Source: Chloropicon primus
Taxonomy: Eukaryota
Length of the DNA: 64,000 nucleotides
Reading direction: 5' to 3'
Assembly (NCBI GenBank): GCA_023205875.1
Contig: CP060770.1
Location: 186,001-250,000, forward strand
Shown here: positions 785-62,867 of the stretch, piece by piece
How positions within the stretch are numbered: the stretch's first letter is position 1
Layout: the number at the start of each line of letters is the position of its first letter
Notes under the pieces: model-generated
What the model was told of the DNA's origin: nothing
Seen by the model: only the letters and a program-made list of their open reading frames with translations
The model's database searches: none
Position numbers and translations under genes: made by a program

Positions 785-1461
785 ACCAATCCGGTCGACC
801 AAACGACCAATCGAAAGAACTCGAGACAAGCTTTCGTTCCGTCCAACTCTCTCCCCTCCCCCGTGCCCTTATCCCTCCTCAAACTCCGTCCAAACACTCG
901 CTCCACACGTCACAATTCGTCGTAATGACAACCCCTTTTTCTCTTTTCTCCCCTTTTCCTGCACCAATCCGGTCGACCAAACGATCAATCGAAAGGGCAA
1001 GAGACAAGCTTTCGTTCTGTTTCACTCCCTTTCCTTTCCCTCGCCCTCCTCCTGCCTCAAACTCCCTCCAAAGACAACGCAACACACGAAACACGTCACG
1101 AGGACCCCAAACGCCGACTCTTATCTAGAGGGACAGATCTCCGTTTTCCTTTCGAGTTCCTGCGACGGAGGAGAACACATAGGTGAGTGATGGGGAGGAG
1201 AAGCACGACGATGGATGGATGGATGAACGGATGGAATCCTCGTGCTCTCCTCTTTCCAATGAGCCCTCGCTTGAGAAAAATGACAAACGGACGAGGATCT
1301 GACAAGACGAATGGTTTTGTTCTTGTGGTTTGATTGCAGTGACACAGGTAAGGGCAAGGGGCGATGAGGTCGAGGGGACGCACGAAGAGGGAGAGAGGGA
1401 GGGAGGGATAGATTCTATAGCTCGCGATCTTTCCAAGGAGACCTCGGTCGAGAAAGATGAC
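785..1461. promoter_or_regulatory. Divergent promoter ClpR/PTRHD1 with four copies of the 52-bp element (+ 785-836, 963-1014; - 1233-1284, 1410-1461)
   Basis: tcgaaag at 811 and 989; ctttcca at 1252 and 1429; each pair lies within a ~178-bp tandem duplication. Confidence 0.75.
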
Positions 1462-2010
1462 AAAGGGACGAGGATCTGACGCGACGAATCAATCGTTTTG
1501 CTCTGTTTGATTCCAGCCCGTCCAGTGACAACACAGGTAAGCGCAAGGGACGTTGCAGGCGATGCATACGAGGGAAGGGGCGAGAGGAAGGGCCACCGAT
1601 CCGTCCACTGTCCTCTTTATCTTTCTGCTGGCAGAGCCACTCGATGGGATTGGCCGAGGACTCGTACTGAAGCGCAAGCACACTCTTGGTTGGTCTTCGC
1701 CTGGTTTCGTTGCTTCTCTCTCTCTCTGCTGCCAGTGCTTGGTCAGTTTGCCCCTTTGCTGCGAGGCATGAGATACATCCCAAAGACGTCCAATTGCATC
1801 AAAAGGTATTCAAGCGTGAAGCATTTGGAAGCTTTTTCGATCCATTCCATCGCGAGGCAGGAGCGCGGAGACTCCTCTCCACAGAGGCCAAGGCGAACAC
1901 AGTTCGGGGCGAGGGCGGCAGCGTGGTTTGGTCTTCCAGCGGGTTCAGTTCAGGGGTCGAGGGAATTTTCGGACAAGTTCAGGTTCACGAGGGGAAGGCC
2001 TGCGACGACG

Positions 2011-2460
2011 ATGGCGGCGGCGGGCACCGGAACCAACAGCACGAGCGAGGTCCTCCTGCAGTACGTGGTGCTGAGGAGAGACCTTTGGGACGTGAAGGGC
2101 GACGATGGGAGTGCTACTCCATGGCCCCTTGGCGCGGTTGTCGCTCAGGGCTGCCACGCCTCCACCGCAGCGCTTTGGCTGTCCAAGGATGACGAGGAGA
2201 CCATCGCCTACTGCGGAGAGGACAACCTCGATCACATGCACAAAGCCGTGCTGGAAGTGAAGAGCGAGACCCAACTTCGGAACTTGAGCGAAAAGCTAGG
2301 GCAGTCGGGGGTCAAGCACAAGCTCTGGATCGAGCAGCCAGAGGACGTGGCCACCTGCCTCGCGACGGCGCCGTTGCCAAAATCAAAGGTGTATCCCCTT
2401 TTGAAGAAATTCCAGCTGTGCAAAGCTTCGATCGTCCAGCAGACTAACAAGAAAAAGTGA
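2011..2460 (+). CDS. PTRHD1: Peptidyl-tRNA hydrolase PTH2-family protein, PTRHD1-like
   Basis: QYVVLRRDL..WPLGAVVAQGCHAS..MHKAVLEV..LWIEQPEDVATCLA; start uncertain (in-frame ATG also at 1768). Confidence 0.85.
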   Translation: MAAAGTGTNSTSEVLLQYVVLRRDLWDVKGDDGSATPWPLGAVVAQGCHASTAALWLSKDDEETIAYCGEDNLDHMHKAVLEVKSETQLRNLSEKLGQSGVKHKLWIEQPEDVATCLATAPLPKSKVYPLLKKFQLCKASIVQQTNKKK

Positions 2461-2539
2461 CACGTCGGCGAAGGGTGCTTATAATAATTTGTAACCTATA
2501 CTTATACAAGAAGCGGGGACGGCGTTCCCTCTAAGCCAG

Positions 2540-4197
2540 TCAGTCTTTTGGAGGCACCCCCGGTTGGTGCACTACTCTTTGGATCAGGCCGTCCCTCTTG
2601 GTGTAACGTATGCCAGACCAGTCGATCTCATCGCTCACCAGGGTCTTGAATGCCGCTGGAACAAAGAGCGCAACATCGATGCACAGCGCAGCCCACATCC
2701 GCACGTATTGCGACCAGCCCCAGTCCAACGAGTACCAGGACGTTTCCTTGTCATTGTCTGCACGAGCCCCGTCTTTCCCTTTCTTCTTGGTGGAACACTC
2801 CAAGTTCCCAGAGAACCCGTAAAGCTGCGCAAAGAGTCTGTCCATGGAACGGACGAAGCTGGTCATCGCGAAGAATCCAAGCACCACACAAAGGAAGAAG
2901 AACACCGCGCTCACGTTGCTCGAAAGCCACCGCATGAGGTGAACGTAAGCGAGCCTAGTGCTGTACTGGTACACCTCGCTGTGCCCAAGGGATGCCTTGA
3001 CAAGAAACCACGCGATTGCGACCAAGCCGTAGCCGTATCTGATCAAGTTTTGGATCACGGCAAGTACGAAGAAAGTGCTGAGATAGACGTGAATCACGAT
3101 GAGCATGTGGTTGAGTCTCTTGTGCCACCCGGACGTGTACGTGTCCAACACGAAAACTTGTCTGCTCATGTAGTTCCAGTACTGCTTCAAGGTGGTCCGC
3201 TTGGGGATCCTTTGGATCAGGACGTTGCTCGGGTTGCACATGATCGTCAGCCCGTTTGCCTGGCAGACGCTCGACGCGATGAGGTCGTCCGAGTAGCCGC
3301 CATTCTCCCAGCTCGAGACCAAGCCGTAAGCGTCCTTCAAAAGGTCTTGCGTTCGGTACATCATGCAACCGCCCCAAACAAAAGTTGTTTTGAATGCGAT
3401 GGAGAAAGCAATGATCAGCCTCATGTGGTACGCGGCCACGCAGTAGGACAGAAAACAAGCGCCCAGGGCTGGCACATCAAATGGGTATGCCGTGCACATG
3501 AAACAGTCCTTGCCCCTATTCGCTTCCATCGTATCCACGAGATTGTCTATCAGCTTGTCGTGAATCTTGATGTCATCGTCGAGAAAGAGAACATAGTCCC
3601 ACTTACGCCCGCTCCCAACTGAACGGGAAAAGAAAGATGCCAACCAACCAGTCAGTCCAAACTGATCCACCAAAGAGGATGCGAAACTTTTCACTTACTT
3701 TTCCCTTCCTTCAACGCTTTGATTCCGCTCACGATGTTGTGCAGCTTCTGCGAGCAAGTTGCAGCCCTTCCGCAAATGACCACGCCGTGATCCGACACGC
3801 TCTCTCTCACGGCAGCGCAGGCCACGTCCTCCTCGCTCTCTATGCAGAAGCACATCCCAAACCTTCCCTGATAGTCTCTCCCTCCCTCCACAAAACTCAA
3901 CCAGTTCCTCACGCTCCCCTCCTTCAAACCTTTTGCCGGGACAAACGCAAAGACACTCGACCTCTCCCTCGGCTCAGCCCCATCTAAGTCCTCCTCTCTC
4001 CGTCCCGTCCCTCGGTGACCCACCCGCTTGTGCTGCCTCTGCCTCCTCTCCTGTGATGACCCCTCCTCGTAAGAGCAAGGCTTTCCGAGAAGGATGCGCC
4101 TCGTCTCGCGCCGCTTCAGCCTCGCAGAGACCAACCAACCCGTGGACAGCGTCAACAATATGACGCTGCCATGCCAATCCACGATGGCGGACAACAT
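2540..4197 (-). CDS. GCS: Ceramide glucosyltransferase (plant-type GCS, GT21); intron near 3620-3698
   Basis: N-terminal TM segment, then TCSQKLHN, YVLFLDDD, WGGCMM, GGYSDD and YWNYMSRQVFVLDTY across ORFs 3691..4227 and 2540..3694. Confidence 0.85.
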
Positions 4198-4273
4198 CTC
4201 GCTTCCCTCTCTCTCCTGCTCTCTCAAGTCATCTCGTCATCCGCTTGAAGCAACCTCACACTTCACTCCGGAA

Positions 4274-4946
4274 GCCAAACGAGGCGTGCGACCAGTCTAC
4301 CGAAAGATAGTGAGGTAATATTTCGTATGATACCCTCCCCTTCTCCCTTACCTGTCTTAATCGCCGTCACTGGTCTTGATAAGGTGGACCACTCCGGTAC
4401 TTTCTCCTTCCCTTTCCGTCCTCCCAGTCGATCCCTCGATGACTCCGGAAGCCAAATGGGTCAATCAAGGTATCGTTGGAAAGATCGCGAGGTCTAGTTT
4501 CGTCCCGCGTCCCCTCTTCTCCTCTTTACCCCTCGTTCGACCGCCAGGCCTCGCCAAAGCGCTCTCCTTCCTCTCCTCTGTCGTCCTCAGAGGTTCCTAT
4601 CCTATTTTCCCCACGCCTTGGTCGAACTCAGGCCAACTCCACAGGAGGGAAGCGGAGGGAAGCGGAGGGAAGAGGGGGACGGTAGAGAGGGAGGGGAGGC
4701 GAACGGAGGACGAGAGACGAAAATAGACCTCGCGAGCTTTCCAACGATACCTCGATTGACCCATTTGGCTTCCGGATCGGTCGAGGGATCGACTGGGAGG
4801 ACGGAAAGGGAAGGAGAAAGTCCCGGAGTGGTCCACCTTGTCAAGACCAGTGACGTCGATTAAGACAGGTAAAGGAGAAGACCAGGGTACCAGACGAAAG
4901 AACATCTCACTACCTTTCCGTAGACTGGTCGCCGGCCCGGTTTGTG
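4274..4946. repeat. Long imperfect inverted repeat (arms ~4274-4510 and ~4711-4946) spanning the GCS/QueG divergent promoter
   Basis: Left-arm ttacctgtcttaatcg..ggtggaccactccgg..gccaaatgggtcaatcaaggtatcgttggaaag is mirrored on the right arm; each arm holds two 52-bp elements 177 bp apart. Confidence 0.95.
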
Positions 4947-5055
4947 TCTGAATCGCGCAAAGAAGAGACTTTTTTAGAGTAACGCCTGGAAGTGGAGTGT
5001 CACCTCATCTCTTCATGGTCCATCACTTGCAGGTTTTTTGCCGTCTGTTGGGGAG

Positions 5056-6495
5056 ATGATCAAGTGGACGAAGGTTTCGAGCCGTGTCATTGCTCGATGG
5101 TCGTGTACCTTGACGGGTGGTGGCCCTGGAGGCGGAAAGGCTGAGGAACAAACATGCTTTTTGCAGGATGAGGCAGCTGGGGGGAGGACACAGCCACAGA
5201 AGAAGAAGAGGAGGAGAAGGAAGAAGAAGAGTGATGTGTTCTCCATGCTGGAGCCATCGGTACCGAGTCACCTGTCGACGTGGGTGGACGTCAAGGAGGC
5301 CATTCGGGACAAGGCCAAAGAGCTGAAGCTGGGTCCCACGAGGTTCGCGGCGTGCGAGAAGCCCAGGCCAGACAGGATGGCAGCGTATCAGAAGTGGATT
5401 GACAGTGGGATGCACGGTGAGATGGCTTACCTTGCGAGGGAGGACAGGCTGGAGCGGAGGAGGGACCCGAGGATCGTGCTGGATGGTGCAAAGAGCATCA
5501 TCGTCTCGTCCATGTTTTACTGGCCGGGCAAGGGTGGCTTCCCTTGGCCCAAGGTCAGCGAGAGGGAGAGGCTGGGGGCCGACTCGGAGGGGAGGGGACT
5601 GGTTTCGTGTTACGCTTGGGGGGACGACTACCACCAGATCATGGGGAGCAAGCTCAGGGACCTGGCGACCTTTGCCGTGGAGCTTTGTGGCGGCAACTCG
5701 CGTTGGTATGTGGACACTGGCGCGGTCATGGAGAGGGACCTGGCCGAGAGAGCAGGGCTCGGTTTCACGGGGAAGAACACCTTGTCCATTCATTCGAATT
5801 ATGGTTCTGGTTTCTTCATCGGGTCTGTTTTCACCACTCTGCCCTTGCCACCAGATGAGCCCATGAAGAAGCCTTCGTATTGCGGGTCCTGCACGAAGTG
5901 TCAAGTCGCTTGCCCGACCGGGGCGCTGGCTCCCACAAGGGATTTCGTGATGGACGCCAGGCGGTGCATAAGCTACCTGACCATCGAGCTCAAGGGCAGC
6001 ATTCCTGTGGAGTTGAGGCCTTTGGTGGGGACTTGGATCTACGGCTGTGACATCTGCCAGGTAAGACTGAGAAAGGTGGGACCAAGCCACCATTTCCTTT
6101 TTGTATCGTTGATTTCTGACTCGCTGTTGGTCGTCTGTTTCCTTCCGCAGGAGGTCTGCCCTTGGAACCAGTTCTCTTGGCAGGGGCAATCCTCGCCCTC
6201 GTGGGGCCAGGTGTCGAAGGACATTAGCTTTCCGGTTCTGAGGGACCTGCTGCACATGGACGAGACCGAGTTCGAAGCGCGGTTTGCACAAAGCGCGGTG
6301 AAAAGGATAGGGAGAGACCGGTTCTTGCGAAACGTGTGCGTCGCCCTAGGAAACTCCGGGGACGTCCGAGCCATCCCTCCGCTGAGGAAGGCCATGGAGA
6401 CGGAGTCTGACTTGGTGAAAGAGCACGCCTCGTGGGCGATCACCCGGATCGCGGAGCAGCAAAGGAGCAGCAGCAAGACGACGACGACGACCTAA
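5056..6495 (+). CDS. queG: Epoxyqueuosine reductase QueG (cobalamin, 2x[4Fe-4S]); intron 6061-6150
   Basis: YAWGDDYH, YVDTGAVMER, GFTGKN, CGSCTKCQVACPTGA, RCISYLTIE, YGCDICQ|EVCPWN, C-terminal HEAT-like RNVCVALGN..EHASWA; GT..AG intron splits the second cluster motif. Confidence 0.9.
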   Translation: MIKWTKVSSRVIARWSCTLTGGGPGGGKAEEQTCFLQDEAAGGRTQPQKKKRRRRKKKSDVFSMLEPSVPSHLSTWVDVKEAIRDKAKELKLGPTRFAACEKPRPDRMAAYQKWIDSGMHGEMAYLAREDRLERRRDPRIVLDGAKSIIVSSMFYWPGKGGFPWPKVSERERLGADSEGRGLVSCYAWGDDYHQIMGSKLRDLATFAVELCGGNSRWYVDTGAVMERDLAERAGLGFTGKNTLSIHSNYGSGFFIGSVFTTLPLPPDEPMKKPSYCGSCTKCQVACPTGALAPTRDFVMDARRCISYLTIELKGSIPVELRPLVGTWIYGCDICQVRLRKVGPSHHFLFVSLISDSLLVVCFLPQEVCPWNQFSWQGQSSPSWGQVSKDISFPVLRDLLHMDETEFEARFAQSAVKRIGRDRFLRNVCVALGNSGDVRAIPPLRKAMETESDLVKEHASWAITRIAEQQRSSSKTTTTT

Positions 6496-6615
6496 AAACA
6501 AAATACATTATTTATTAAAGAACTTTATTTTCGATATGCACCATTACAAAACACAGGCGAGTTCACTTGAGGTCGTCCAGCAGATTGTTCACGGTGGCGT
6601 TGATGATTGCCATCA

Positions 6616-6865
6616 CCACGATCCGTCGTGATGCGAGGGCAATCGCAGGCGATCTCGCCGCCCGAGCGCACTCCCAAGCGTCCTCGTGTCCTATTAGTGA
6701 TGATGCTGATGTTGCTGCTGCTGATGGGGAAAATGGAGTTCCTCCTTGACCAGGGCACCAAACAGGCCAAGCAAGGGCTCTTTGGAAAGATCTCGCCACG
6801 ATCCGTCGTAATGCGAGGACAATCCCATGCGATGTCTCCGTCCAAGCCCACTCCCAAGCGTCCTG
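6616..6865. repeat. Diverged tandem duplication, 180-bp period (6616-6685 vs 6796-6865), with a 52-bp element at 6757-6808
   Basis: ccacgatccgtcgt..atgcgagg..actcccaagcgtcct present twice. Confidence 0.85.
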
Positions 6866-7220
6866 TTCAAGTCTCCTGGCGACGCCCCCCATGATCATGA
6901 TCTGGAGTGTCCACGGGCGAGAAAGAAGTGTCCTCCATCTGTCACTTGAAAAAAAGAACTTTTCCCGGGCTTTTTTTCCTCGAGGCTTTGGATTGTGGAA
7001 AAGTGTAGAAATTACACTTTAGGGTCGGCGGAACATTTCAAATTTTTTCAAATCCTCGTTTTCCCTTTCGTCGGTAGAAATCCCTTCTTGAGAGGACACG
7101 AGTGACTCCCCGGAGGAAAACACACCAAAAACCGATCGATCGATCGATCGGAAGACGAGCACCGCAGAGCAGAGCAGGACGGAGGAAGGTAAGGACGACG
7201 ACGACGACGACGACGACGAG

Positions 7221-7526
7221 GAGCGGAGGAGAGGAGGAGGGAGAATATCGCTCTCTCCATCTCTTGCTCTCTCTCTCTCTCTCTCTCCATCTCTCTCCAT
7301 CTCTTGCTCTGGTTTCTTTCTTCATTTTTTCATGGGAAAGAGACAGTTTGCTTGGTGGGCTCCATGTTGTTGTGGACGAGCGAGCGAGCGGAGGAGCGGA
7401 GGAGAGAGAACATCACTCTCTCCATCTCTTGCTCTCTCTCTCTCCATCTCTTGCTCTGTTTTCTTTCTTCATTTTTTCATGGGAAAGAGACAGTTTGCTT
7501 GGTGGGCTCCATGTTGTTGTTGTGGA
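7221..7526. repeat. Tandem duplication (~150-165 bp period) upstream of MYB3R, probably in a 5' UTR intron
   Basis: ttcattttttcatgggaaagagacagtttgcttggtgggctccatgttgttg at 7321 and 7468; GTAAG donor at 7189. Confidence 0.85.
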
Positions 7527-8016
7527 AAGTATCCTCGTGTTGAGGTGGAGGACAGAGGAAAGGAAAAGAGAATCTCTTCATCTCTTGCTCTGTTTTTGTT
7601 TCAGGGAACAGAACAGAACAACAGAGAGACCTCTTCCTCTTCCTCGCGTCTCGTCCACAGAGCAGAGCAAAAAGAGAGAGAGCCTTCCTCCGTTCCATCC
7701 TCCATCCTTATTCCTTTCCGTTTCTAACGCCAACGCTTCTCCTTCTTTCCTTTTTTTTTCGTTCAGCTTGGCTCCTGTTGGGTTTTTGTTTTTGATTCAG
7801 TAGCGGGTTGGGTTGCTCGTCGTGAGAGTTTGTTGTTGTTGCTGCTCTGAGAAGAACAGAACAGAATCGACTGGACTGGACTGGACTCTGCTCCGTTCCT
7901 TCGTTCGTTCGTTCGTTCGTTCAATTTTTTTTTATTTTTTTTTGCTTGTTGGTCGACTACTACTCGCTCGTCGTCCACCAGCAGCAGCAGCAGCACCAGG
8001 TAGATAGAGATAGAGC

Positions 8017-10128
8017 ATGGAGTCCATACCGGAGGGCTCGCAAGCGGCCGCGGAAACGCAGGCGGCTCGCCCCCCCCTGGCGCAGTTGGACCCGCAGAAC
8101 CAGCCGGTCGCCTCCGGGCAGCCCGAGGACCCGAAGAAGGAGTCCCCGTCGAGCGTGCCCGCCCAGCAGCAGCAGGCCAAGGCGGCGACGACGAAGGTGG
8201 ACGTCGCGAAGAACGAGAAGTTCACGGAGGCCGCCCTGAGCCTGCCGCCCGTGCTGGGAAAGACTGGCGCGCCGAAGAGGAAGTCGAGCAAGGGGGGTTG
8301 GACGAACGAGGAGGACGAGATCTTGAGGAGGGCGGTGCAGCAGTGCGAGGGGAAGAATTGGAAGAAGATCGCAGAGTACTTCACCGACAGGAGCGACGTC
8401 CAGTGCCTCCACCGGTGGCAGAAGGTGCTGAACCCCGACCTCATCAAGGGGCCGTGGACCCCGGACGAGGACAGGAAGATCATCTCCCTAGTCAAGGAGC
8501 ACGGCCCGAAGAAGTGGAGCGTGATCGCCGAGAAGCTCCCGGGGAGGATAGGCAAGCAGTGTAGGGAGAGGTGGCACAACCACCTGAACCCCGACATCAA
8601 GCAGGACCCTTGGAGCATGGAGGAGGACAAGACCCTGATAGACGCGCACAAGAAGCACGGAAACAAGTGGGCGGAGATCTCGAAGCTCCTGCCGGGGAGG
8701 ACGGACAACGCCATCAAGAACAGGTGGAACTCCACCATGAAGAGGAAGTACGAGGAGCGCACCTCCTCCAACGCGGGTGGAAAGTCAAAGCAGCAGGCCA
8801 GGAAGACTCAGAAGACGTCTGCGGGCGGCAGCGCGGGCGGGGTGAAGGCCGGCAAGGACAAGGGGGCCAAGTCCCAGGAGCAGAAGAAGAAGGCGCAGAG
8901 GCAGGGGGCGGGAAGGAAGAAGGCGGCCTCGAAGAAGGGCCCGAAGGGCAAGGAGGTGAACGTCGCCGCCATGGCGTTTGGCCAGCAGCAGCAGGTCGCG
9001 CACCCCTGGCAGAACCTCTACGCCGCCACCGGTCAGTTCCCCTTCTCCGCGGCGAACATGGGCATGTACGCCCCTCCCGGCGCGGATCCCCAGGCGCACG
9101 CCCAGCAGCTCAGCGCGTACGCCGCGGGCCAGTACCAGCCATTCGCGATGTACGCGAGCCCCCAGGGCAACCTGGTGGGGCAGCCCTTCAGCGCCCAGCA
9201 GCCCGGAGCCGCGGCAGGCCAGTCGAGCGGAGCGGCAGGGCAGCAGCAGCACCAGAGCATGCTGCAGCAGAACAACCTTGCGAGCGCTTTGCACAACGCC
9301 TCGAGCCTCCAGGACCTCACCGGCTTTGGCCTCACCTCCCCCGAGGCTCACCAGGCCCTCTTGCAGTCCTCCATTAGCTCGCCCCTCGGCATTTCCCAGC
9401 TCTTCATGGGGGAGGGAGGGCTCGGTAACGTGGGGTCGCTGACGCCAGGGCAGTTCCTGTTCGCGGCGACGCCAAACCAGAGCGCCTCGGGACCGAACGG
9501 AAGCCCGCAGTCGAGGCTCAGCTCCGCGGCGAAGACCTTTGGCGCGACCCCTTCGATTTACCAAAGGAGGCACAGGGCCGGAGCGAGCGGGCAGCAGGTC
9601 GCTGCACTGGAACCGGACAGTGCCTTGGGAGGCGTCAAGACGGAGCAGGTGGGCTCCGCTCCTGGAAGGAACCACATCGACCAGTCGGACTTGGCGAGCC
9701 AGTCGGACTTGGCGAGCCTGGCGAGGCCCCTTTTCGCCAGCCCAAGCACGAGCTACGGCCAGAAGGAGAGGCAGCAGCAGAAGCTCGAGGACAAGCAGCA
9801 GATTGTCGCCGAGAAGAAGGTGCTGGGAGAGAACCATATGATCCCCAAGCAGCCAGCAACCCACAAGGGGCCAAGACTCAGTCATGTCTTCAGGCAACCA
9901 CAGGACGCCTTGACCATGATGCAGACGGTCGAGGCCCAGAACCAAGGACTTTTCATGGGGTGCGAGGAGGTGCTCGCGGGGAAATCCGGAGACACGAAAA
10001 CGAAAGCGAACGCCGCTGGGGAAGGAAACATCAGCCCAACGGGCAGCAAAGAGAACCACAACATTCACCTTCTCACCCCAGGAAGCAGGTACTTAATGCA
10101 GCATACTGCAAACCTTTGCGACAATTAG
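8017..10128 (+). CDS. MYB3R: Three-repeat MYB transcription factor (R1R2R3-MYB)
   Basis: Three MYB repeats: [61 protein letters not shown]. Confidence 0.95.
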
Positions 10129-10279
10129 GAAGCACACACACCCCTATGTTTTAATATATGAGAAAAAATATGAACCCCAAAACGAAACAAAACGAAACTG
10201 ATGTACTACAATGTCACTTGACTTCACGCGACGGCGTTAGAATGCGCCTCGCTGTGCCCAAACCCTCGCCTAGCAAGAC

Positions 10280-10651
10280 CTACTGCCCTCCCTTCATCTC
10301 CTTGATGGTGGGCCAGACGCCCGACGCCGCCGCGATGGCGAGGAGCACGACAGCTACCTTGACCATGACGCCCTTGGTCCCGGAACCCTGCGATGGGATC
10401 ACAAGCTGCTGCCCCGGAAAGATCATGTCCCCTTCACCAATCGTCTTCGTGTTCGCTTTCCTCAACTTCTCCGTCGTCACGTTATGGCCGGCTGCGATGC
10501 TGGACAGCCACTCGCCCTTCTGCACTTCGTGGTACTTCTTCGCGTCGCATGACACGAGTCTCGAAGATCTCGAGCACCTCGATGCCGATGGAAGGGAAGG
10601 GGGGCTCCTTCCAACGGAGAACCTCCTCGTCGTAATAGTGTTCACGTTCAT
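10280..10651 (-). CDS. Small LysM-domain protein with transit-like N-terminus and C-terminal TM helix
   Basis: HEVQKGEWLSSIAAGHNVTTEKLRKAN..IFPGQQLVIP is a LysM domain; Ser/Arg-rich N-terminus; VMVKVAVVLLAIAAASGVW. Confidence 0.85.
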   Translation of the reverse strand: MNVNTITTRRFSVGRSPPSLPSASRCSRSSRLVSCDAKKYHEVQKGEWLSSIAAGHNVTTEKLRKANTKTIGEGDMIFPGQQLVIPSQGSGTKGVMVKVAVVLLAIAAASGVWPTIKEMKGGQ

Positions 10652-10704
10652 CGCACGAAAATAATCTTCAGCCCACAAGAAAAAACAGCAAGCAGAATCA
10701 CTCG

Positions 10705-11000
10705 TTCAGTCCCTCCACGTTGTCATCCGTTACCCGTAACGCTCGGGCGAGCGCTCTTTCGAAAGATCAAGAGACGAAGACACCATCTAACGAGCGTCAC
10801 CTCCCTCCAGAACACCACCACGTCGTCCAATCTCTCCAAAGCCACCTCATTCCGTCCAAGAGGCAGCCACGAATCACACGTTTCGCGTCTCAACATCCTC
10901 GTCCGTGAAGCGTAGCGCTCGATCGAGGGCTCTTTCGAAAGAGCACGACACGAGTATTCCATCGGCTTCGCTTCTTGTTCCCTCACCACTCGCCCTCGTC
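10705..11000. repeat. 296-bp promoter module, copy 1 (upstream of the LysM gene)
   Basis: Nearly identical to 13802-14097 (4 mismatches found by eye); contains two 52-bp elements 176 bp apart. Confidence 0.95.
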
Positions 11001-11479
11001 GTCCAAATCCTCCTCTCCACTTACCGGTCGCTGGAGTCACTCCTCTCTCTTCCTGTGCACCAATGGGAAAGCCCCGAGGAAGTTGGCGAGAGAGGAGCAC
11101 AGCCTCCCTTTGCTCGAGGAATTAGACGACGAGGGCGAGGATTGGTGCGCAAGAGAGATCTATTGAGCGAAGCTACGTCTCGAGAGCTTTCGAACGGTAC
11201 CTTGGTTGACGCGTTTGACGCTCGGAGTGCTCGACGAGGTTCGCATCAGTGTTTGCTGAAGCAGGATTCGATTGGGATGGAGTGACTTTGTGGAGGAAGT
11301 GGAGGGAGATTGGAGCGCTGGGAGGGATAGTGACCAGCATCGAGCGGTAGCGTGACTCACTGTTAGGTTGCTTTCTGAGGATGATGCCCTGAGTGCTCGT
11401 GGAGGTCACGAGGGAGGGAGTTCGAGACCATGATGGAGGAGGTTGGCCTCAGCATGAGGTTGTGAGTGTCACCAACAAC

Positions 11480-12832
11480 ATGAGGAAAGAACTGGAGGGG
11501 GATGACTCTCCTCCTCCACGTGGCTTCCAAAATCAGCTCAAGCATGACAATGAGGTTCTCAATCGTGAGAAGTGGCAGCCGGGGGACGACGAGTTTGTCA
11601 CAAAAGCAAAAACAAATCCTCAAAGTCTTCCACTTGAGCAGCAGCAGCAACCCAAGCAGGTGGAGGGAGGGGGCAGCCGGGATCGAGCCGGACTCAAAGC
11701 TGTTGGCCATGGCGAAGGACTGGCATCGTGGGATTCTGTTCCTTGGGTTGGCATTGTGACCTTCCTGGTGGTGTGTTGTGCTTCGGCGTACCTTTACCTG
11801 CGCGGAGCTGGTGGGTTGCTCACTGGAACGGGAAGGGTTGTTGTCGGTGACGATGCGACGAGCGAGAGGAAGAAGAGGAAGAGGGCGAGAAACAGAAAGA
11901 ATCGCGCGGCGAGGAAAGCGACAGGGGGTGCGGTCACAAGCGTGCAAGGGCACGGTGGAGGGGGGTTGGCTCTGAACGACGCCAGTGCTCCCGCAAGTTC
12001 AACGGCGGTGGACCAGGGGGTGGTGGAGACGGTGGCGTCGTTGGCCCGGGGCCTTGGGCTCAACCCTGCCGAGCTCGATCCAAAGACCAAACTGCAGCTT
12101 GTCCAAACGGCGCTGAATTCGGAGGCATTGAAGCTGCGAAGGGAACAGAAGGACGTGGCCGGGGAAGCGCACCGGTTGAACCTCAGCAGGGAGGAGAAGC
12201 GGTGCGTCGAGGAGGAGGTCTTCAAATTCAAGGCCTCGTGCGCAGACTCCCTCGTTGCGGGCATCCTGGTGACCTTCCTGTGCATTGGCGTCAAGGCGTT
12301 CGATCTTGAGGGCCAGTGGACCTCCATTTTGGAAGCTTGCCCTGCGGGAACAGGCCCCGGAGAGGGAGGGGAGAGACACTCCTGGTTCCCTTTCGCCGTG
12401 CCCTTCCTCTTGAGCAAGGTTGAAATCCTGAACCAAGCCCTGTGTCTCTTGAAAGTCACTCTGTCCAGGGTCGGCGGTTACCTTGTGGCGGCCTACTTTT
12501 TGGCCAAATTCTTCCACCACGTGGCCTCCTTGGCAGTGACTTACCACAGAGCACCAATCACGGTGATCCTCCTGCTCCTGGGTCTTGGCATGGGCAGCGC
12601 TCTGAATGTGCTGGTCTCCGCTTGGGGCGGGAGTGGTACCCTGTTCTTCTCCGTGTGGATGGTCTTGTGCGCTTTGCACTGCGTCCTCGTCACGAGAGCG
12701 CAAACAATTGTGAGACTGCTCGGGAGAGAGAGAATCATCCCATGGAAGCACTTTGCGCTTCACGTCGTCCTCATTGTGGTGCTGCCAGCGACTGCTGGAC
12801 TCCTGCCCTTTCAAGTTGTATCATATTTTTGA
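11480..12832 (+). CDS. Multi-pass membrane protein resembling plant CPR5
   Basis: Coiled coil then SCADSLVAGILV..SWFP..ALCLL..SRV..APITVILLLLG..WGGSG..W..LCALH, similar to the CPR5 C-terminal TM region as I recall it; start uncertain. Confidence 0.55.
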   Translation: MRKELEGDDSPPPRGFQNQLKHDNEVLNREKWQPGDDEFVTKAKTNPQSLPLEQQQQPKQVEGGGSRDRAGLKAVGHGEGLASWDSVPWVGIVTFLVVCCASAYLYLRGAGGLLTGTGRVVVGDDATSERKKRKRARNRKNRAARKATGGAVTSVQGHGGGGLALNDASAPASSTAVDQGVVETVASLARGLGLNPAELDPKTKLQLVQTALNSEALKLRREQKDVAGEAHRLNLSREEKRCVEEEVFKFKASCADSLVAGILVTFLCIGVKAFDLEGQWTSILEACPAGTGPGEGGERHSWFPFAVPFLLSKVEILNQALCLLKVTLSRVGGYLVAAYFLAKFFHHVASLAVTYHRAPITVILLLLGLGMGSALNVLVSAWGGSGTLFFSVWMVLCALHCVLVTRAQTIVRLLGRERIIPWKHFALHVVLIVVLPATAGLLPFQVVSYF

Positions 12833-12859
12833 TATATAGTTGTATTATATTGATGCCTC

Positions 12860-13655
12860 TCACATCTCACCGCACTGAGAGATGACCACGTCCTGTTGGT
12901 GGCGAACGAGCGAATACAATGCAAACAAGTCAGGGGGCGAAAGGCCTTGAGAAGAAGAAGCGGGGAGGGAAGAAAAGGAGCTACGAGGACTTACGAGCCT
13001 TGGCTTGTTGTTTGGTCCGCATTGCACGTTCTCCACTTTCCTGACCACGAGGAGTCCGTCGCCCAAGACCCTGCCGAAGACAACGTGCTTTCCGTCGAGC
13101 CACTCGCACTTCCCGCAAGTGATGAAGAACTGGCACCCGTTGGTGTCCTTTCCGCTGTTTGCCATCGAAAGAAGACCCGGTCCCGTGTGTGTTGCCACAA
13201 AGTTCTCGTCATCAAACCTCGTGCCTTGCGTTCGAAACGGGGAGAGGGGGAGAAGAAGAAGAACAACAAATCGTCCAACCGTTCAGTCCCTGGAGCAACA
13301 CCAAGAAAGGGCAAGAGAAAAAGGGAAGGACATCCATAGACGGGTTCACTCGCAGGACTGCCTTACCGTAGATACACAAGCTCCCCGACCCATCGCCCTT
13401 GAGGAAGTCTCCGCCCTGAATCATGAACTCTTTGATAACCCTGTGAAACTTGCAGAGCTTGTAACCGATGGGTTGGCCGTTCTTTCTGAATTCACCGGTG
13501 CAGAGCTGTCGAAAGTTCTCACACGTCCGGGGCGCTACATCAGCAAAGAGCTCCATCTTCACCCTTCCCGCATCGATCCCTCCTATCTGGACGTCGAAGA
13601 ACACAACTGGGTTGCTCAGGTTCTGAGGCCTCGTGTGCCAGCTCTCGTCCGCCAT
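12860..13655 (-). CDS. PPIH: Cyclophilin, spliceosomal PPIH/CYP22 type; two introns
   Basis: [80 protein letters not shown]; ends ISQCGEM. Confidence 0.9.
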
Positions 13656-13801: not shown

Positions 13802-14097
13802 TTCAGTCCCTCCACGTTGTCATCCGTTACCCGTAATGCTCGGGCGAGCGCTCTTTCGAAAGATCAAGAGCCGAAGACACCATCTAACGAGCGTCACCTC
13901 CCTCCAGAACACCACCACGTTGTCCAATCTCTCCAAAGCCACCTCATTCCGTCCAAGAGGCAGCCACGAATCACACGTTTCGCGTCTCAACATCCTCGTC
14001 CGTGAAGCGTAGCGCTCGATCGAGGGCTCTTTCGAAAGATCACGACACGAGTATTCCATCGGCTTCGCTTCTTGTTCCCTCACCACTCGCCCTCGTC
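13802..14097. repeat. 296-bp promoter module, copy 2 (upstream of the cyclophilin gene)
   Basis: Direct repeat of 10705-11000, offset 3097 bp. Confidence 0.95.
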
Positions 14098-14270
14098 TTC
14101 CATTCTCGCCCCCAAAACTCACCTGGCGGTCGTCTCCTCCGTCCTCTTCAGCTTTCAATTCAAAAAATTGAGCGGCCAGAGGGAGAAGAGAGAGAGAAGC
14201 GAAGGCGAGCGGTAAGTGAGGGGTCTTGCGCGAAACGGGGAGGGTCTTTGGTGTGGTGGAGGGGGTCGTT

Positions 14271-14499
14271 GGATAGATCTTGTCGCGATCTTTCGAAAGA
14301 GCTCTTGCTTGGGACGACTTTCGTCCTGTGGAGGATTTGACGTACTGAAGTAGAGTTCTGTTTTGCAGAGTGTGAAGGAAAGAGCGAGAGGTAAGTGAGG
14401 TGAAGCGTGGAGTGGAGGGTGTTGTTGTGGTCGTGGATGGTGTCATAGGATAGATCGTGTCGCGATCTTTCGAAAGAGCTCTCGATCGGGACGATTGAC
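14271..14499 (-). promoter_or_regulatory. Pair of 52-bp elements upstream of the TPR gene
   Basis: ggatagatcNtgtcgcgatctttcgaaagagctct with cores at 14290 and 14467 (177 bp apart). Confidence 0.75.
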
Positions 14500-14564
14500 G
14501 TCGATTTGAGCCATCTTGAGGAACTGAAAGGAGATCTGTTCGCTTCTGTTTGTCTCAGTGGAAG

Positions 14565-16039: not shown

Positions 16040-16732
16040 GCCAACCGTTTCGAGTGACGACTCTTTCGGAAGATCACGACCTAATACGTCGCACTGTTCC
16101 CTCTCTCGACCCCTTACGACCACGACACGACCCCTGGATCGCCTTGAACCCCAGCCTCTCCTCGCTTCCGGCCTAGGCATTGGTCTTCTTCTCAAGCGCA
16201 AGATCCTCAAATGGGGTCCAAATCTTTCGAACGACGGGTCTATCGAAAGAGGAGAAGGCGACTCTTCGTTTCGTAACGCTTTCTGTCGCACTCAAAAGCC
16301 TCGTCGCTCTCCTTACCTTCGAGTTTGCCTCGCTCCTCTTCGCTCCTCTGCGTGGGATCCCAAGGACAAGAAATGGAGACGAAATTTGGGGATCTCAACG
16401 GCGGTCGAGACGGCGGTCGAGACATCAAGCAAAGGAGGTGAGTTTGAGTGGAAATGACGGAGAGGTTGGGTCTCTGGAGGAAAGTGATGAAGTCGAAGAC
16501 GAAATAATATTGTGTCCTCTTTCCAAAGACTCCTCTCTCGAAGGATTTGAAGCCGTTTTGAGGATTTGAGAGACGAAAGATTGCATGCTTGCCATGAAAA
16601 TGTGCTCTGACATCTGGCGGACTCTTGGTGTGGTTTTGACGACAGGCATCGGGTCGAAGCCAGAGTTGGCCCACGCAGTGCGACGCTACGTTCCACGATC
16701 TTTCGTTTGGCTGGTCCCTTGACGCACTTGGC
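16040..16732. promoter_or_regulatory. Divergent promoter rpl23/ABCA with four 52-bp elements (+ 16040, 16217; - 16500, 16681)
   Basis: Cores at 16066, 16243, 16519 and 16700 (last one degenerate). Confidence 0.7.
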
Positions 16733-28656: not shown

Positions 28657-29198
28657 GCTTCGCCTCAAGTGTGACGGTTCGATCGAAAGCTCGTGACAAA
28701 AACTTTCGCTCCGTCACCACCTCCGTCACCAGCTCCTCTCCCCCTCGTTGCCGTCGTCGTCGTCGTCGTTTAGGGTCTCCACCGATCGGGTTCGGCTTCG
28801 TTCGATTCCGATGGCCTCGCCTCGTCCTTGGAGCGACGACGTCACCGGTGGAGTGTGTGGGATCAATGGAAAGCTCGTGAGATGCGGTTTCGTTTGGTCC
28901 AACCCTCGAGTGCACCCTTTGCCCGCCTTCGTCCTCACGTCGCGCGCACGCGCCGCGTCTCTTTGCCTCTTTGGCTCAAACCTTCGTCCCCCTCGATTTG
29001 TGATAGTTTTGGCGCGAAGCCCCCAAAAGCAAAATCTCCATTAAATGGTTTAGCGAGACAAACTCTGATGATGATGATGATGATGATGATGTTGATGGAA
29101 TGGTTGGACAAGAGGAGGAGAAGGTGTTGATGGCATCCACATGGCCTCTTGCACTTCTTCGTGCTCTTTCCAAAGAGCCCTCACTTGATGGGGAAAGG
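28657..29198. promoter_or_regulatory. ORC5 promoter with 52-bp elements (+ 28657, 28841; - 29147)
   Basis: tcgaaagctcgtgac at 28683, tggaaagctcgtgag at 28867, ctttccaaagagccctc at 29166. Confidence 0.65.
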
Positions 29199-35715: not shown

Positions 35716-36100
35716 ACCAAAACGGTCAAGTAAGGTATCAATGGAAAGATCTCAAGACGATCTACCGTGTTATGAACCTCTCCGTCGTTCCAAACAAACC
35801 ACTCGTCGTCCTGTGAGCAATCAATGATGATCAACCCTGCAAAACTCTGCAACTCTGATGTGGCTCTATTTCAGCCAGAAAATCTAGAAAAAGATTTCCC
35901 ATTAATAATGTTGGTTTCCCCATTAATTATTTTTTCATTGGAAAAATTTTGACAAGCCAGAGAGAAGGGGAAGCGGTGCGGTGCGGTGCGAAACCATCGC
36001 AAGTGAGGGACGATAACGAGCACTGGAGGGGACTAAGGTGGTATCAATCGAAAGGTCTTCTCACGGGCTTTCCATTGATACCTTACTTGACCGATTTCGT
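35716..36100. promoter_or_regulatory. Divergent promoter (helical-repeat gene/ING) bracketed by inward-facing 52-bp elements sharing a perfect 26-bp inverted match
   Basis: cggtcaagtaaggtatcaatggaaag (35723-35748) vs ctttccattgataccttacttgaccg (36068-36093); AT-rich centre ~35880-35950. Confidence 0.8.
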
Positions 36101-38041: not shown

Positions 38042-38559
38042 TCAAAACCACTCGAGTGACGACTCTTTCGAAAGCTCTTGAGACGAACTTTCTGATGGAT
38101 CCCTCTTCTCTCACTCTCACAGTCGTTCTCGCCACCACCGTCCTCGTTGAGGTAGCCCAACTCGAATACTTTTTTTTTTCCTTCCCCTTCCGCTCTCCCA
38201 ATCAATGCTTCGACCACTCCAGTTGTCAAACCACCCGAGTGACGGCTCTTTCGAAAGGTCTTGAGACGAACTGTCGTTCAATTGAAACCCCTTCCGCTCT
38301 CTTCGCCCTCGACGTCGTCCAAACCCACGACAAAACAGCCCAGGCGACACTCCACTCGTCTCCTCTGGATCAGTTCGTTTTTGGCGCCGTCGAAGAAACA
38401 GAAACAAAAATCGATCGATCGATCGAGGCGGAGGAGGAGGAGGGGGCGAGTTCGCGACCGATCGCCGCTCGAGGGGTGGGAGAAAAGGGAACGATCACTT
38501 GCGCGATCGAATATACGTCTCGCGATCTTTGGATTCGTGGGTCGGTTGACCCCATTGGC
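38042..38559. promoter_or_regulatory. Divergent promoter RPC7-like/BIN4 with 52-bp elements (+ 38042, 38225; - 38508)
   Basis: actccagttgtcaaa..gagtgacg.ctctttcgaaag.tcttgagacgaact duplicated with a 183-bp period; inverse copy core at 38527. Confidence 0.75.
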
Positions 38560-40939: not shown

Positions 40940-41435
40940 TCCGTTCCTCTCGTACGACAGCTCTTTCGAAAGATCTGGAAACGCTCTTTCTTGTGATCCC
41001 TTCGCCTTCCCCTTTTCTTCTCCCTTTCGTCCGCCTCGCCTCCACTGAAGGGACGGAGACACCTGCAAGAGGGGTCCAAGAATCCCGTTTACCCAAAGGC
41101 CAACCACGTCTAATGGACGCCAAACGAGTCGATCAAGGTATCGTTGGAAAGATCTCGAGACAATCTTTCTCGTGGCCCCTCACTTGCGTCCTGAAACCCT
41201 CCCTTTCGTCCACCTCGCCTCCTTCAAGTCGTGACGTCGAGTCCTGTGGTTTCCTGTCCTTCCGCCGACAGCTGACTGGACACAAACGAACAGACACGAG
41301 GCGCTCGCTCGGCTGAAGAGGTGAGTTTCAACGCGACATGGAGGACGGAGGAGGAAGATGGAGGACCGAAGGAGCACACCGATGGAACCGTTACGTTCCC
41401 CTCTTTCCATCGATGTCTCGCACGAAAAGAGAGGC
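40940..41435. promoter_or_regulatory. Divergent promoter RRP41/ALDH6 with 52-bp elements (+ 40940, 41119; - 41384)
   Basis: Cores at 40966, 41145 and 41403. Confidence 0.75.
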
Positions 41436-46990: not shown

Positions 46991-47410
46991 GCCAAATGGG
47001 TCAAATGACCACTCGTTGGAAAGATCGTGAGACGTATGTTTCGTCTAAGCAATGAACATCCTTTGAATCGTCGTCACTTGGTCTCCAATTGCACCGCAAG
47101 CGTCGCCCCTCTCCCTCGCACCTCCTGGATTCCGACTGTCAAAATTGTCCATGGGATGAAGATTCATTTTGTCATTTTGTGATAGACGTTATATTTATAT
47201 AACGTCCCACACCGAAAAACCCTAATTGGTAACGTCGCGCGCAGAATTCTGCAAAGCGGCGATCAATCGCGATCGCGGGTCGTCACGGAGGGAGGTACGT
47301 TTGCAGGCGAAATACGACCCTTGGACGAGGGGAAAAGGGTGACGAGAAGGTTACCACGGCGTCCGCCATCTCGTGATCTTTCCAACGACCCCTCGTTTGG
47401 ACCGTTTCGT
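46991..47410. promoter_or_regulatory. Divergent promoter GT/TRRAP with 52-bp elements (+ 46991; - 47359) around an AT-rich core
   Basis: gccaaatgggtcaaatgaccactcgttggaaagatc; gatctttccaacgacccctcg; ttatatttatataa at ~47189-47202. Confidence 0.75.
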
Positions 47411-60527: not shown

Positions 60528-60616
60528 TAAATAAATATAAATAGTTCTTGTGTGAATATGGTAATATAGTACAACACAATTTGTTCAAAACATGCAGTTG
60601 CTGTTGCTTGATGCAA

Positions 60617-62148
60617 TCAATCGATCCCATGGATTCTTCCAAGGGCCAACTCGTTGGACCAAGGGGTGTCCTCGTTGGTGTAGGCTTCCGGAGGGAATTG
60701 GAAAGGGAGGGGAACGTCCATATCGTCAGCAACCTTGACCGCTACGCTCAGTTCGTAGTGTCTGATACAGAGCTGCGACCCCTGCTTCTGAAGGCACCCC
60801 CAGGCCGCCTTGGAGAGGTTGTGGCTGCCGACGACAACCCACGCCAGCTCTGAACCGGAGTAACGCATGTAGGTCTTGATGTGCGGCGCTGCCCGGACAG
60901 AGCCCCACTTCCTGTAGTGGGGGAGAAGAAAGTCTTTGCAAACATTTTTCTGGGCCCCGGGGATGCTTGTACCCGCACTCAGGCCTTCCAAACTTGTCGC
61001 TACCTCTCTGTACGTGGGCCAGACCAAGTGCAAGTCTCGCTCCAGGTTCGCAGGAGGGCCCAAATGCCCACTTCCAGAGAGCCTTCCTGCTGACAGTGAC
61101 GTTACGAACTCCTCTTGCACCCACTTCCTATCCAAGCTGCCTACTGAAGAGTACTGGCAGATCAAAGGCGAGCCAGAAAAACAATACTTGAAGGTCTCCT
61201 GGCTCAAAACCCTCCTCAGTTTCATGTGGCCGTAGAGGTTGATGGTGTTCGCTTTATGGTAACCGGGAACAGACGCGATTAAGCACAACGCCTTTGCCGG
61301 GGAGAAGTCCACCTTCTTCACGTTTTCCAAGAACTTCATGCAGGTGCGAGGCAGGTTCAAGTGGTTCAGGTACTGGATGAACTCGATCTCAAAGCTGCAA
61401 CTCGATCTCTCCTTCTTCAGGAAAAAGTCTTGAAACCAAATTCCTTGCGTCTTGTAGCAACAGTCTTTCTCAATGAGGTTCGCCGTTGTGATGATGAGCC
61501 TCATCTTGTCTCGGAAAAAAAGTATGAAGAACTGCAAGGAAGAGAGAGAGAGAGAGAGAGAGAGAAAGTCAGTCGCTTTTCATGGAACAACTTTTTCAAT
61601 GGTCAACTTACTTTGCTGTGATGGGTGCCGTAAGGGATGGGCAAGGGCGGCGCGTGCAAAACAAGCCTGCTTCTGTCTTGGTCCATCCATCCCCTCTCCT
61701 TCACGAGTCTTTCCTTGATGCACTTGCTCTGCGCATTCCTCTCGTCATAAGCCACGATAAGCTCTGGAGCACGCACCACGTCTGGAAAGTTCTCTATGAG
61801 GAAATCCGCGTCAAGCAAGTAATTGGAGACTAACGCGGCTTTCACTTCTCCCCGGCACAAGTCTTGCAACCGTTTTCCCTTCGGGTGGACACCGCCCACG
61901 TGCATGATTTCAAATGCCTTTGGCCGACACTCCACAGCGTGAACCTTCTTCGCTTCCTTGACCAGGTCCTGCTTCTCGATGAAGCGTGTGAAGTCTGTCA
62001 CCCCCTTTCTTCTCAGCCACTCTTTGAGCTCCTTGATGCTGTACTCATCGAATTGGGGCGAGGACCTCGACCCTGACGAGGATCCAGCGCCACTGGCATC
62101 ACCCGACCCTCTCTTCCTCTTCCTCTCCCTCTCCCTCTCCCCGTCCAT
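60617..62148 (-). CDS. TDP1: Tyrosyl-DNA phosphodiesterase 1; intron 61532-61611
   Basis: YGTHHSK|..TTANL, LIASVPGYH, QYSSVGSL, RAAPHIKTY, GSHNLSKAAWG, IRHYEL; N-terminal SAP-like IKELKEWLRRKGV..EKQDLV. Confidence 0.92.
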
Positions 62149-62385
62149 CCTTCCTGCCAAGCTCTCGTTCTCGTCCAAACTAAAACCAGGAGGTGGCACC
62201 TTTGGGTCACCCGAAAGGGTCCGAATGAGGACACAACCAAGCGATCCGCATACCAAGCTTCCCAATCTCTCCTTCCCTTCACCGCTCCCTCGTCCTCCAC
62301 GCGGCAACAGCTGCGAGCCCGAGTCTGGGCTCTCCCTTCCCGTCTTCCCAAGCCCTTCACCCAGCCTCAACTCCTTCCTTGGAGA

Positions 62386-62867
62386 AGAAAATCGGTCATG
62401 CGACCACTCAAACGAAAGAACACAAGACGACAATTCGCTCTATACCTCGTTTGCTCCCTCCCTCTCTCCCCCTCGCCGCTAATCGTCCCCTCCCTTCAAA
62501 CGCTTCGGCCTCCCTTCGTCTTCCTCATCCAATGGAAACACTTCTCGGGAGCCATCCCGGGCGCCAAATGGGTCGAGTGAGAGCTCTTTAGAAAGACCAA
62601 GAGACGGAGCGTCGTTCTACGGTCCCCTCTTGTCCTCTTTCTCCCATCCCCGTCGACCAAACCTTCGAACACCTTGTTCTCCTGCCTGGAAGGAAGCTGC
62701 TTCGCGCCAAAAAGTGACAGACGTCCTAAACGAAGAGGAGAGGCAGAAGAGCGCGAGGCGTGGAGTGCGTTAGCGGGCGGCGAGGGTCGAGAGAGGGGAA
62801 AGGGACCAGTCGAGGAGAATCTTCATCCCTTCCTCTTTCCAAAGAGCCCTCGGTCGAGTATTATGGC
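62386..62867. promoter_or_regulatory. Divergent promoter TDP1/PrimPol with 52-bp elements (+ 62386, 62563; - 62816)
   Basis: Cores at 62412, 62589 and 62835. Confidence 0.75.

Follow-up and report, generated by a model that had tools for sequence, protein, structure and literature searches.

A copied, nucleosome-length module faces the promoter gaps of a Chloropicon primus chromosome segment and probably positions the flanking nucleosomes

Thirty-six copies of an oriented 52-bp element face the promoter gaps of a 64,000-nt stretch of Chloropicon primus DNA (assembly GCA_023205875.1, contig CP060770.1, positions 186,001 to 250,000; hereafter the window), a compact segment of a eukaryotic chromosome carrying about 28 genes. 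The 52-mer forms the gene-ward third of a longer, oriented module of about 147 bp. Its rhythm, spacing and boundaries make it probable that the module is a lineage-specific, copied unit that positions the +1 and +2 nucleosomes and the −1 nucleosome, with a core that is probably read by a protein. The analysis covers this one 64-kb window and one relative. Module position 1 is the first base of the 52-mer, and the strand given for a copy is the one pointing to the shared gap.

The element is real, non-random and under constraint. All 36 ungapped copies listed in the original prediction, which was made from the letters of the window and a list of its open reading frames, were found where it placed them, with zero register shifts. 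The position matrix built from them carries 40.7 bits, and copies score 13.7–56.5 bits with matrices that leave out their own locus. Above a cut of 20 bits, the window yields 37 matches, namely the 36 listed copies and one reverse-strand echo overlapping a listed copy, while 100 locally dinucleotide-shuffled windows yield none. A gapped nhmmer search recovered 36/36 without a single indel and found no further full copy in the window, so that the matrix and the hidden Markov model, both proposed with the original prediction, return the same 36 copies. In the core, seven of the 52 columns are near-invariant, against 0.0075 expected by neutral decay (30 copies), and column conservation departs from the neutral expectation with a chi-square p of 1e-27. 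Changes that keep the S (G or C) or W (A or T) class number 201 against 183 transitions, a balance in which recent duplicates differ.

The signal extends well beyond the 52 bp originally proposed; the 52-mer is real, but the module reaches about 147 bp. A rhythm of WW and SS dinucleotides is locked to the element on both flanks. In the flank at positions 53–130 a free fit of the period peaks at 10.5 bp (p=0.0025 against a null of random offsets, with 30 copies left after removing those more than 80% alike), and the rhythm is significant when inner (21), outer (9) and single (10) copies are taken separately (p 0.001–0.003). It is also stronger than in 2000 simulations in which a shuffled common ancestor was decayed until it reached the same 33% identity (p=0.001), and the copies share a common phase (Rayleigh R 0.77, n=28 after dropping 8 near-duplicate copies). 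A fixed-phase projection at period 10.4 is positive at 1–21 and 43–147, absent at 22–42 and reversed at 148–168; at this period the signal gene-ward of the last copy is not significant. The helical spacing first noticed within the 52-mer holds for WW/SS, whose top period there is 10.5 bp (p=0.001), but is weaker for information content, with peaks at 6.5 and 9.5–10 bp. A/T runs of at least 6 start at 149–182 in 12 of 17 cases and never at 46–148, and the G+C content (GC) between facing footprints is below that of positions 98–147 in 11/11 pairs. Because the phase holds over 1–147 and A/T runs set in from 149, the repeat unit reads as 147 + ~30 bp. Same-strand neighbours fit this length, lying 176–184 bp apart in all 13 tandem pairs (176–178 in nine), and a third copy in a row was never seen among these pairs in the window.

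Placement is tied to promoter gaps. None of the 36 copies overlaps coding sequence, which makes up about 71% of the window by an approximate annotation, and the original remark that long coding sequences lack the full element stands. The predicted arrangement of ten divergent gene pairs with plus copies on the left and minus copies on the right was found in 10/10. The claim that the element marks every divergent promoter is right in that all ten pairs bear it, but the copies lie in the transcribed leader rather than in the promoter gap and are not restricted to divergent promoters. There are 11 inward-facing pairs, with inner centres 249–364 bp apart where inner cores had been put at ~245–360 bp. 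Ten are the divergent gene pairs; the 11th (28841/29147) sits at a tandem junction where the leader of ORC5 meets the 3' end of the same-strand gene for 2-oxoglutarate dehydrogenase E1 (OGDH). Copy 29147 lies just beyond the stop codon of this minus-strand OGDH gene. Copy 6757 has no partner copy and no recognisable gene, and overlaps a 111-aa frame without a Pfam match. These two copies stand at 3' ends of tandem genes yet are oriented toward a promoter gap, which argues for a role at the DNA level. Most gene starts in the window are flanked by one or two copies, and no stray copy lies away from promoter gaps in the 64 kb. The leaders of five genes lack a copy (Myb3R, an IQ-motif gene, a Pro-Thr repeat gene, MurB and OGDH; best scores below 0 bits), and none of them belongs to a divergent pair bearing the element on its own side. 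The modules are listed below; 147-bp spans are predicted footprints, and scores are held-out bits.

785..931, plus strand: outer module, core 785-836, score 42.2; leader of the gene with ATG 749, covered by transcript contigs
963..1109, plus: inner module, core 963-1014, score 42.9; tandem duplicate of 785 at 178 bp
1138..1284, minus: inner module, core 1233-1284, score 41.2; core in the first 5' intron of the PTH2 gene (splice joint; Pfam)
1315..1461, minus: outer module, core 1410-1461, score 39.7; core in the second 5' intron of the PTH2 gene
4274..4420, plus: outer module, core 4274-4325, score 34.3; 77 bp ahead of ATG 4197
4451..4597, plus: inner module, core 4451-4502, score 48.8
4623..4769, minus: inner module, core 4718-4769, score 46.6; leader of the QueG-like gene
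4800..4946, minus: outer module, core 4895-4946, score 23.5
6615..6688, plus: outer module, truncated; tandem duplicate of the 6757 module at 180 bp; positions 39-112 kept, 1-38 gone
6757..6903, plus: unpaired module, core 6757-6808, score 47.0; beyond the 3' end of the QueG-like gene; predicted −1
10733..10879, plus: outer module, core 10733-10784, score 35.0; LysM gene leader
10909..11055, plus: inner module, core 10909-10960, score 41.3
11073..11219, minus: single module, core 11168-11219, score 50.6; leader of the 450-aa gene at 11480
13830..13976, plus: outer module, core 13830-13881, score 30.3; cyclophilin gene leader
14006..14152, plus: inner module, core 14006-14057, score 42.9
14176..14322, minus: inner module, core 14271-14322, score 37.6; in intron ~14212-14368, joint in 2/4 runs
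14353..14499, minus: outer module, core 14448-14499, score 49.4; in intron ~14391-14558, joint in 3/4 runs
16040..16186, plus: outer module, core 16040-16091, score 39.5; ribosomal L23 gene leader, with contigs
16217..16363, plus: inner module, core 16217-16268, score 40.3; contig end 16345 is module position 129
16405..16551, minus: inner module, core 16500-16551, score 30.4; ABC transporter gene leader
16586..16732, minus: outer module, core 16681-16732, score 27.4
28657..28803, plus: outer module, core 28657-28708, score 18.2; 12 bp ahead of the ORC5 ATG
28841..28987, plus: inner module, core 28841-28892, score 25.4
29052..29198, minus: module, core 29147-29198, score 13.7, the weakest; OGDH E1 3' end, facing the ORC5 promoter; predicted −1
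35716..35862, plus: single module, core 35716-35767, score 48.2
35866..35914, no strand: A/T-rich block between two modules; aligns with the relative's ING upstream region (L001 93-144), local score 34
35954..36100, minus: single module, core 36049-36100, score 43.5; ING gene leader
38042..38188, plus: outer module, core 38042-38093, score 51.5
38225..38371, plus: inner module, core 38225-38276, score 51.5
38413..38559, minus: single module, core 38508-38559, score 36.4; 29 bp ahead of ATG 38588
40940..41086, plus: outer module, core 40940-40991, score 39.9; RNase PH gene leader
41119..41265, plus: inner module, core 41119-41170, score 56.5
41289..41435, minus: single module, core 41384-41435, score 24.5; aldehyde dehydrogenase gene leader
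46991..47137, plus: single module, core 46991-47042, score 45.6; glycosyltransferase gene leader
47264..47410, minus: single module, core 47359-47410, score 30.8; Tra1 gene leader
62386..62532, plus: outer module, core 62386-62437, score 39.5; TDP1 gene leader
62563..62709, plus: inner module, core 62563-62614, score 46.6
62721..62867, minus: single module, core 62816-62867, score 46.4; 33 bp ahead of ATG 62900

The gene with ATG 749 is presumably ClpP-like. The 6757 module faces an A/T-rich gap ahead of a gene that we take to be Myb3R, and the truncated copy beside it has an identity to it of 0.93 over positions 39–52, 0.80 over 53–112 and 0.34 over 1–38.

The element lies between transcript start and start codon, in the 5' untranslated region or first introns, and thus downstream of the start site. 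This follows from the coverage and splice joints of contigs assembled from four public runs of three studies, which are presumed to be RNA and were compared with window positions 1–20000. Splice joints put copies 1233, 1410, 14271 and 14448 inside 5' introns of about 156–168 nt, and unspliced contigs span copies 785, 963, 16040 and 16217. Contig 5' ends occur at module positions 122, 129 and 135 in three cases and at 82 and 93 in two more; all are lower bounds rather than start sites. The distance from element to start codon is 12–484 bp in the 20 genes tabulated. Other contigs of the same runs match the core and then continue into unlike, pyrimidine-rich sequence, and these loose ends suggest further copies elsewhere in the genome, which lends the original term 'genome-wide' indirect support at most. 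Around 1339–1346 a micro-exon of ~8 nt separates two nucleosome-sized 5' introns (joint in 2/4 runs). At 11111–11360, contigs of three runs match the leader with many letter differences, which suggests another copy of this 5' region on a different expressed gene outside the window. A 178-bp skip at 766–945 in one run lacks splice ends and was set aside as a probable assembly collapse of the tandem duplicate.

A rival explanation is a long downstream core-promoter or transcription-factor element, which would recruit the initiation machinery at a fixed distance and leave nucleosome positioning incidental. The strict orientation, the near-invariant core columns and the three contig ends at 122–135 fit such an element, as do splice-donor-like sites at 95–120 in 11/36 copies, against 4% at random. 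However, the core would lie ~90–105 bp past the inferred start, beyond the usual TFIID footprint. The second copies at 177 bp, the 147-bp rhythm and the A/T boundary at 149 would stay unexplained, and outer copies are conserved as well as inner ones by their held-out scores. We therefore regard this explanation as unlikely. A signal acting in the RNA of the 5' leaders, through structure, splicing, export or translation control, is much less probable still. It would account for the element strand, which is antisense to the transcript and constant for the 34 copies ahead of a start codon, and for a pseudo-palindrome centred at 28.5. Nonetheless, there is no covariation, since at each of the 20 positions pairs are as frequent as independence predicts; the mean folding z is −0.31, with values below −2 in 3/36 copies; and among 41 Rfam matches at E<=1 none lies over a copy and none reaches the gathering score. 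On these covariation, Rfam and folding tests an RNA hairpin was rejected. In addition, some copies are exonic, others lie in introns that are spliced out, and a copy in a 3' end has the opposite sense.

Comparison with a relative suggests that the element is lineage-specific. The closest named relative of the window's ING protein is that of Chloropicon laureae (57% identity). Eighty metagenome loci (435 kb) were fetched with an ING alignment, a route that involves no scan of public collections for the element itself, and three of them (L001–L003) come from a related Chloropicon-like genome with a GC of 59–61%. Published values are 60.4–60.5% for C. roscoffensis and 57.4–57.5% for C. primus, with mean introns of 122 bp and 152–154 bp, respectively (Chloropicon genome papers). 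The gene order of L002 equals that of window 36186–46578 (six genes). No match above 3.3 bits occurs in L001–L003, and this absence from a congener is what would make the element lineage-specific. A scan of related algae had been proposed with the original prediction, and at the syntenic congener locus the element is missing. Distances between orthologous start codons are 207 and ~152–161 bp in the relative against 619 and 661 bp in the window; the two window gaps hold three modules each, and the leaders are 400–500 bp longer than the relative's. The A/T-rich block at 35866..35914 (gap GC 0.29) aligns across both species, falls precisely in the space separating two footprints and is likely the ancestral core promoter. 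In the intergenic region of the relative, 18 bp resemble the core, but in the wrong orientation and with leader scores below −12 bits, and the resemblance was treated as chance. A hidden proximal part of the module at the five element-less genes or six leaders of the relative was also rejected (scores 2.8–8.7 against a random median of 5.2). In L002 positions 1–10538, introns lie elsewhere than in the window; the relative's ING intron is missing from the window's gene, and several additional introns occur in the glycosyltransferase and RNase PH genes of L002.

Wider searches returned no convincing match to the element. Across the 80 ING-fetched loci the best score is 12.9 bits, apparently one site in four non-Chloropicon contigs, and the best nhmmer E is 0.15; nothing matched in two scans of viral contigs or in a phage search made with a single module. 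The main text of the two Chloropicon genome papers uses 'promoter' 0 times and 'motif' 0 and 1 times, and their supplements may list the element among unclassified repeats. A description was not found in the literature searched, in which subscription papers are poorly covered, and in this form the element is apparently undescribed.

The modules appear to have spread by copying. Positions 53–147 are alike in one register (best shift 0 in 19/28 held-out copies, with no peak at ±10 bp), and this register-specific likeness points to shared ancestry or to base-specific constraint beyond the rhythm. The nearest neighbour of a copy lies in the same locus for 12/36 copies against 2.3 expected, and tandem module pairs are up to 83% identical. 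Positions 4276–4524 form an inverted duplicate of 4696–4944 (249 bp, 87%) across one promoter. A 300-bp leader that includes both modules is 98% identical between the LysM gene (10705–11004) and the cyclophilin gene (13802–14101). On these identities, copying of leader units would be recent and ongoing. The LysM and cyclophilin genes are unrelated, and their common leader looks like a recent leader swap.

Such copying also fits a mobile or self-copying repeat, now decayed, whose insertions fall immediately downstream of starts in fixed orientation and are tolerated by the host, with nucleosome-like features that serve the element itself or were inherited. Its lineage restriction, the leaders 400–500 bp longer where three copies sit, the register-specific likeness over ~147 bp and the recent duplicates all agree with this, and C. 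elegans has promoters derived from miniature inverted-repeat transposable elements (MITEs) with 10-bp periodic TT (PMC9757741). In contrast, the modules have no conserved end on the promoter side (majority letter <=0.57 at 131–180) and one column of 0.75 on the gene side, although age could have erased the ends. No terminal inverted repeats were found at module ends, and a common 6-mer at both ends occurs in 13/28 modules against 8.9 expected, which is no clear excess of target-site-like repeats, with ends that are not precisely located. Column conservation far from neutral with zero indels, and the lack of strays or of more than two copies in a row in the 64 kb, also speak against it. Long head-to-tail arrays are absent from the window, and Tandem Repeats Finder did not report the element. 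A repeat of this kind is thus an improbable explanation, if slightly less so than the core-promoter element; the data oppose lack of function rather than a mobile-element origin. Identity with Introners was rejected: four copies lie in RNA-supported introns, others are unspliced or at a 3' end, and a donor and branch site surround 3/36.

Nucleosome positioning would unite these features. Each module would seat one nucleosome, a second copy would seat +2, and two facing modules would bracket the promoter gap as +1/+1 or +1/−1. The WW/SS rhythm would set the rotation of the histone octamer and the A/T edge its translation, with the dyad most likely near module position 62–72 (alternative 10-bp registers at 30–51) and the remaining ~30 bp of the 177-bp unit as linker. 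Ostreococcus nucleosome repeats are ~180–183 bp (10.64898/2026.07.10.737489, 10.1101/2025.04.21.649811). At positions 22–42 the rhythm is interrupted and near-invariant bases occur, so this stretch is probably the target of a sequence-specific protein or a remodeller subunit sitting on the nucleosome's promoter-distal half, and a reader placed there would give polarity. The phase of the rhythm predicts that the invariant block lies near an outward-facing minor groove. The modules would descend from one ancestor and, since the lineage parted from that of the relative, would have multiplied as whole leader units were copied in tandem, in inverted form and ectopically, a process that may still go on. 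The original suggestion of a chromatin-organising element longer than a factor site gains from the rhythm over 1–147, the 177-bp spacing and the A/T boundaries, but the element lies downstream of the start. A variant in which the module forms the +1/+2 linker was discarded, as the 201–316-bp gaps between inner 52-mers are too short for two nucleosomes and a gap in most pairs.

Several observations weigh against nucleosome positioning. Nucleosome position and function are deduced here from sequence only, in one 64-kb window and one relative, and the projection phase was picked from the same data, which makes its t values optimistic. A dyad at ~72 leaves only 11–28 bp between footprints in 6/11 pairs, and promoter gaps in C. 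elegans are far wider, at 120–140 bp (PMC7706728). With a dyad near 30–41 the gaps would be normal, the four RNA-supported introns would be centred on it and the pseudo-palindrome at 28.5 would fit, but the rhythm at 106–147 would fall outside the footprint; the centring of the introns can also come from duplication of a unit made of first exon and intron. At forty bits, the base-specific information exceeds what histone shape readout would require. Outside the modules, a period of 172–184 bp is not significant (8 dinucleotide classes, lowest p 0.07), and of eight tests for phasing deeper into genes one reached p=0.019, not significant after correction. Finally, five genes in the window and the relative's orthologues work without the element.

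The facing pairs could also mark promoter gaps for a different process on the DNA, for example origin licensing, the targeting of adenine methylation or insulation. Inward-facing pairs around open gaps would suit this, and in prasinophytes N6-methyladenine marks the first nucleosome territories after the start (PMC12695648). However, there is one pair per ~6 kb, tied to genes, and the module shows no strong enrichment of ApT (0.047 per bp at 1–52, 0.033 at 53–147 and 0.052 at 148–177 against 0.039 in the window). Like the RNA-level signal, this explanation seems to us highly improbable.

Sequence-encoded promoter nucleosomes are a known kind of signal, and an individually recognisable, nucleosome-length tandem module would be a new form of it. 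Nucleosome-sized satellite monomers with a protein box are familiar from alpha satellite with its CENP-B box and from the plant 178-bp centromere repeat. Like these, the module measures about one nucleosome repeat, has a conserved internal box and is homogenised by copying, but it forms dispersed promoter arrays of at most two rather than long heterochromatic arrays. A 10-bp WW periodicity at +1/−1 nucleosomes is reported for ubiquitous and germline promoters of C. elegans, fly and zebrafish (PMC7706728). Both systems show phase-locked WW with anti-phase SS on the two sides of the gap, often at bidirectional promoters, and the weak periodicity also seen at −1 of unidirectional ones again resembles the module (PMC7706728). 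Unlike that statistical, low-information bias, the module consists of recognisable copies with a 41-bit core, is repeated at +2, appears to derive from one ancestral sequence and is missing in a congener (PMC7706728). Germline promoters of C. elegans derived from CERP2/CELE2 MITEs, whose m1m2 motif pairs HIM-17 binds, resemble it in that a lineage-specific copied element brings oriented motifs and 10-bp periodicity (PMC9757741). Their short motif pairs, spaced 10–30 bp, sit in the inverted repeats of annotated MITEs, and these elements occur in thousands of copies outside promoters and supply about a third of germline promoters, whereas the module is nucleosome-length, lacks terminal repeats and, in the window, strays, and lies downstream of the start at most genes (PMC9757741).

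Other systems share single traits. DNA-guided 'seed' nucleosomes in Tetrahymena (PMC4617968) and yeast INO80 reading DNA shape together with Reb1 (PMC8163841) likewise have sequence-encoded positions near starts, but as described there the signals are GC content or shape, with no shared motif. Additionally, the Reb1 site is in the gap, ~145 bp ahead of the dyad, whereas the module's core would lie inside the predicted nucleosome, in its distal half (PMC8163841). Introners are a repeated family in picoalgal introns with nucleosome-scale geometry (10.1101/2022.06.06.494994). They are, however, whole introns found throughout genes, often with terminal inverted repeats and target-site duplications, while the module has many exonic copies, unconserved ends and a place at promoter flanks only (10.1101/2022.06.06.494994). 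MuvB/LIN54 stabilises +1 nucleosomes at CHR elements, where a short site recognised in the minor groove goes with a tightly placed +1 nucleosome; in contrast, the module is much longer, mostly serves housekeeping genes and holds the consensus hexamer in only 12/36 copies, which leaves CHR a lead at most (PMC4974476, PMC8792015).

Additional features of the window lie outside the modules. Upstream regions of the five module-less genes are rich in CT/GA microsatellites (7200–7480, 20150–20370, 22620–22700, 26600–26800, 32820–33160) and possibly form a second promoter class. A ~95-bp, 94% inverted repeat with microsatellite arms occurs at 20169–20366 and 32984–33153, 12.7 kb apart and both at gene 3' ends. 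In the Myb3R gene, an 18-bp tandem duplication (9681–9718) is missing from contigs of three runs, a strain or allele difference. The QueG-like gene (5056–6495) encodes an epoxyqueuosine reductase in an alga and is spliced and expressed. A nuclear gene for the peptidoglycan precursor enzyme MurB (25429–26526) is relevant to plastid peptidoglycan in chlorophytes, and 23184–25286 encodes a predicted 700-aa surface protein that contains a long Pro-Thr repeat and matches no Pfam family.

A wider proposal, which we regard as tentative and rather doubtful, is that one Chloropicon lineage replaced a diffuse positioning code by a copyable 147+30-bp 'nucleosome cassette'. This cassette would be 601-like with a dedicated reader, would have swept most promoters since the congener split, and would fix +1, +2 and −1 genome-wide, quantise leaders and spread by leader swaps. 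How far DNA sequence or remodellers set the +1 nucleosome is a long-running question, and the known natural signals are weak and statistical. If nucleosome positioning by the module is true, a genome with a recognisable nucleosome-length module at most genes makes the role of sequence directly testable, and promoter architecture can be rewritten genome-wide within one genus. A new protein that reads nucleosomes, and natural parts for positioning them in engineered algae, could also come from the module.

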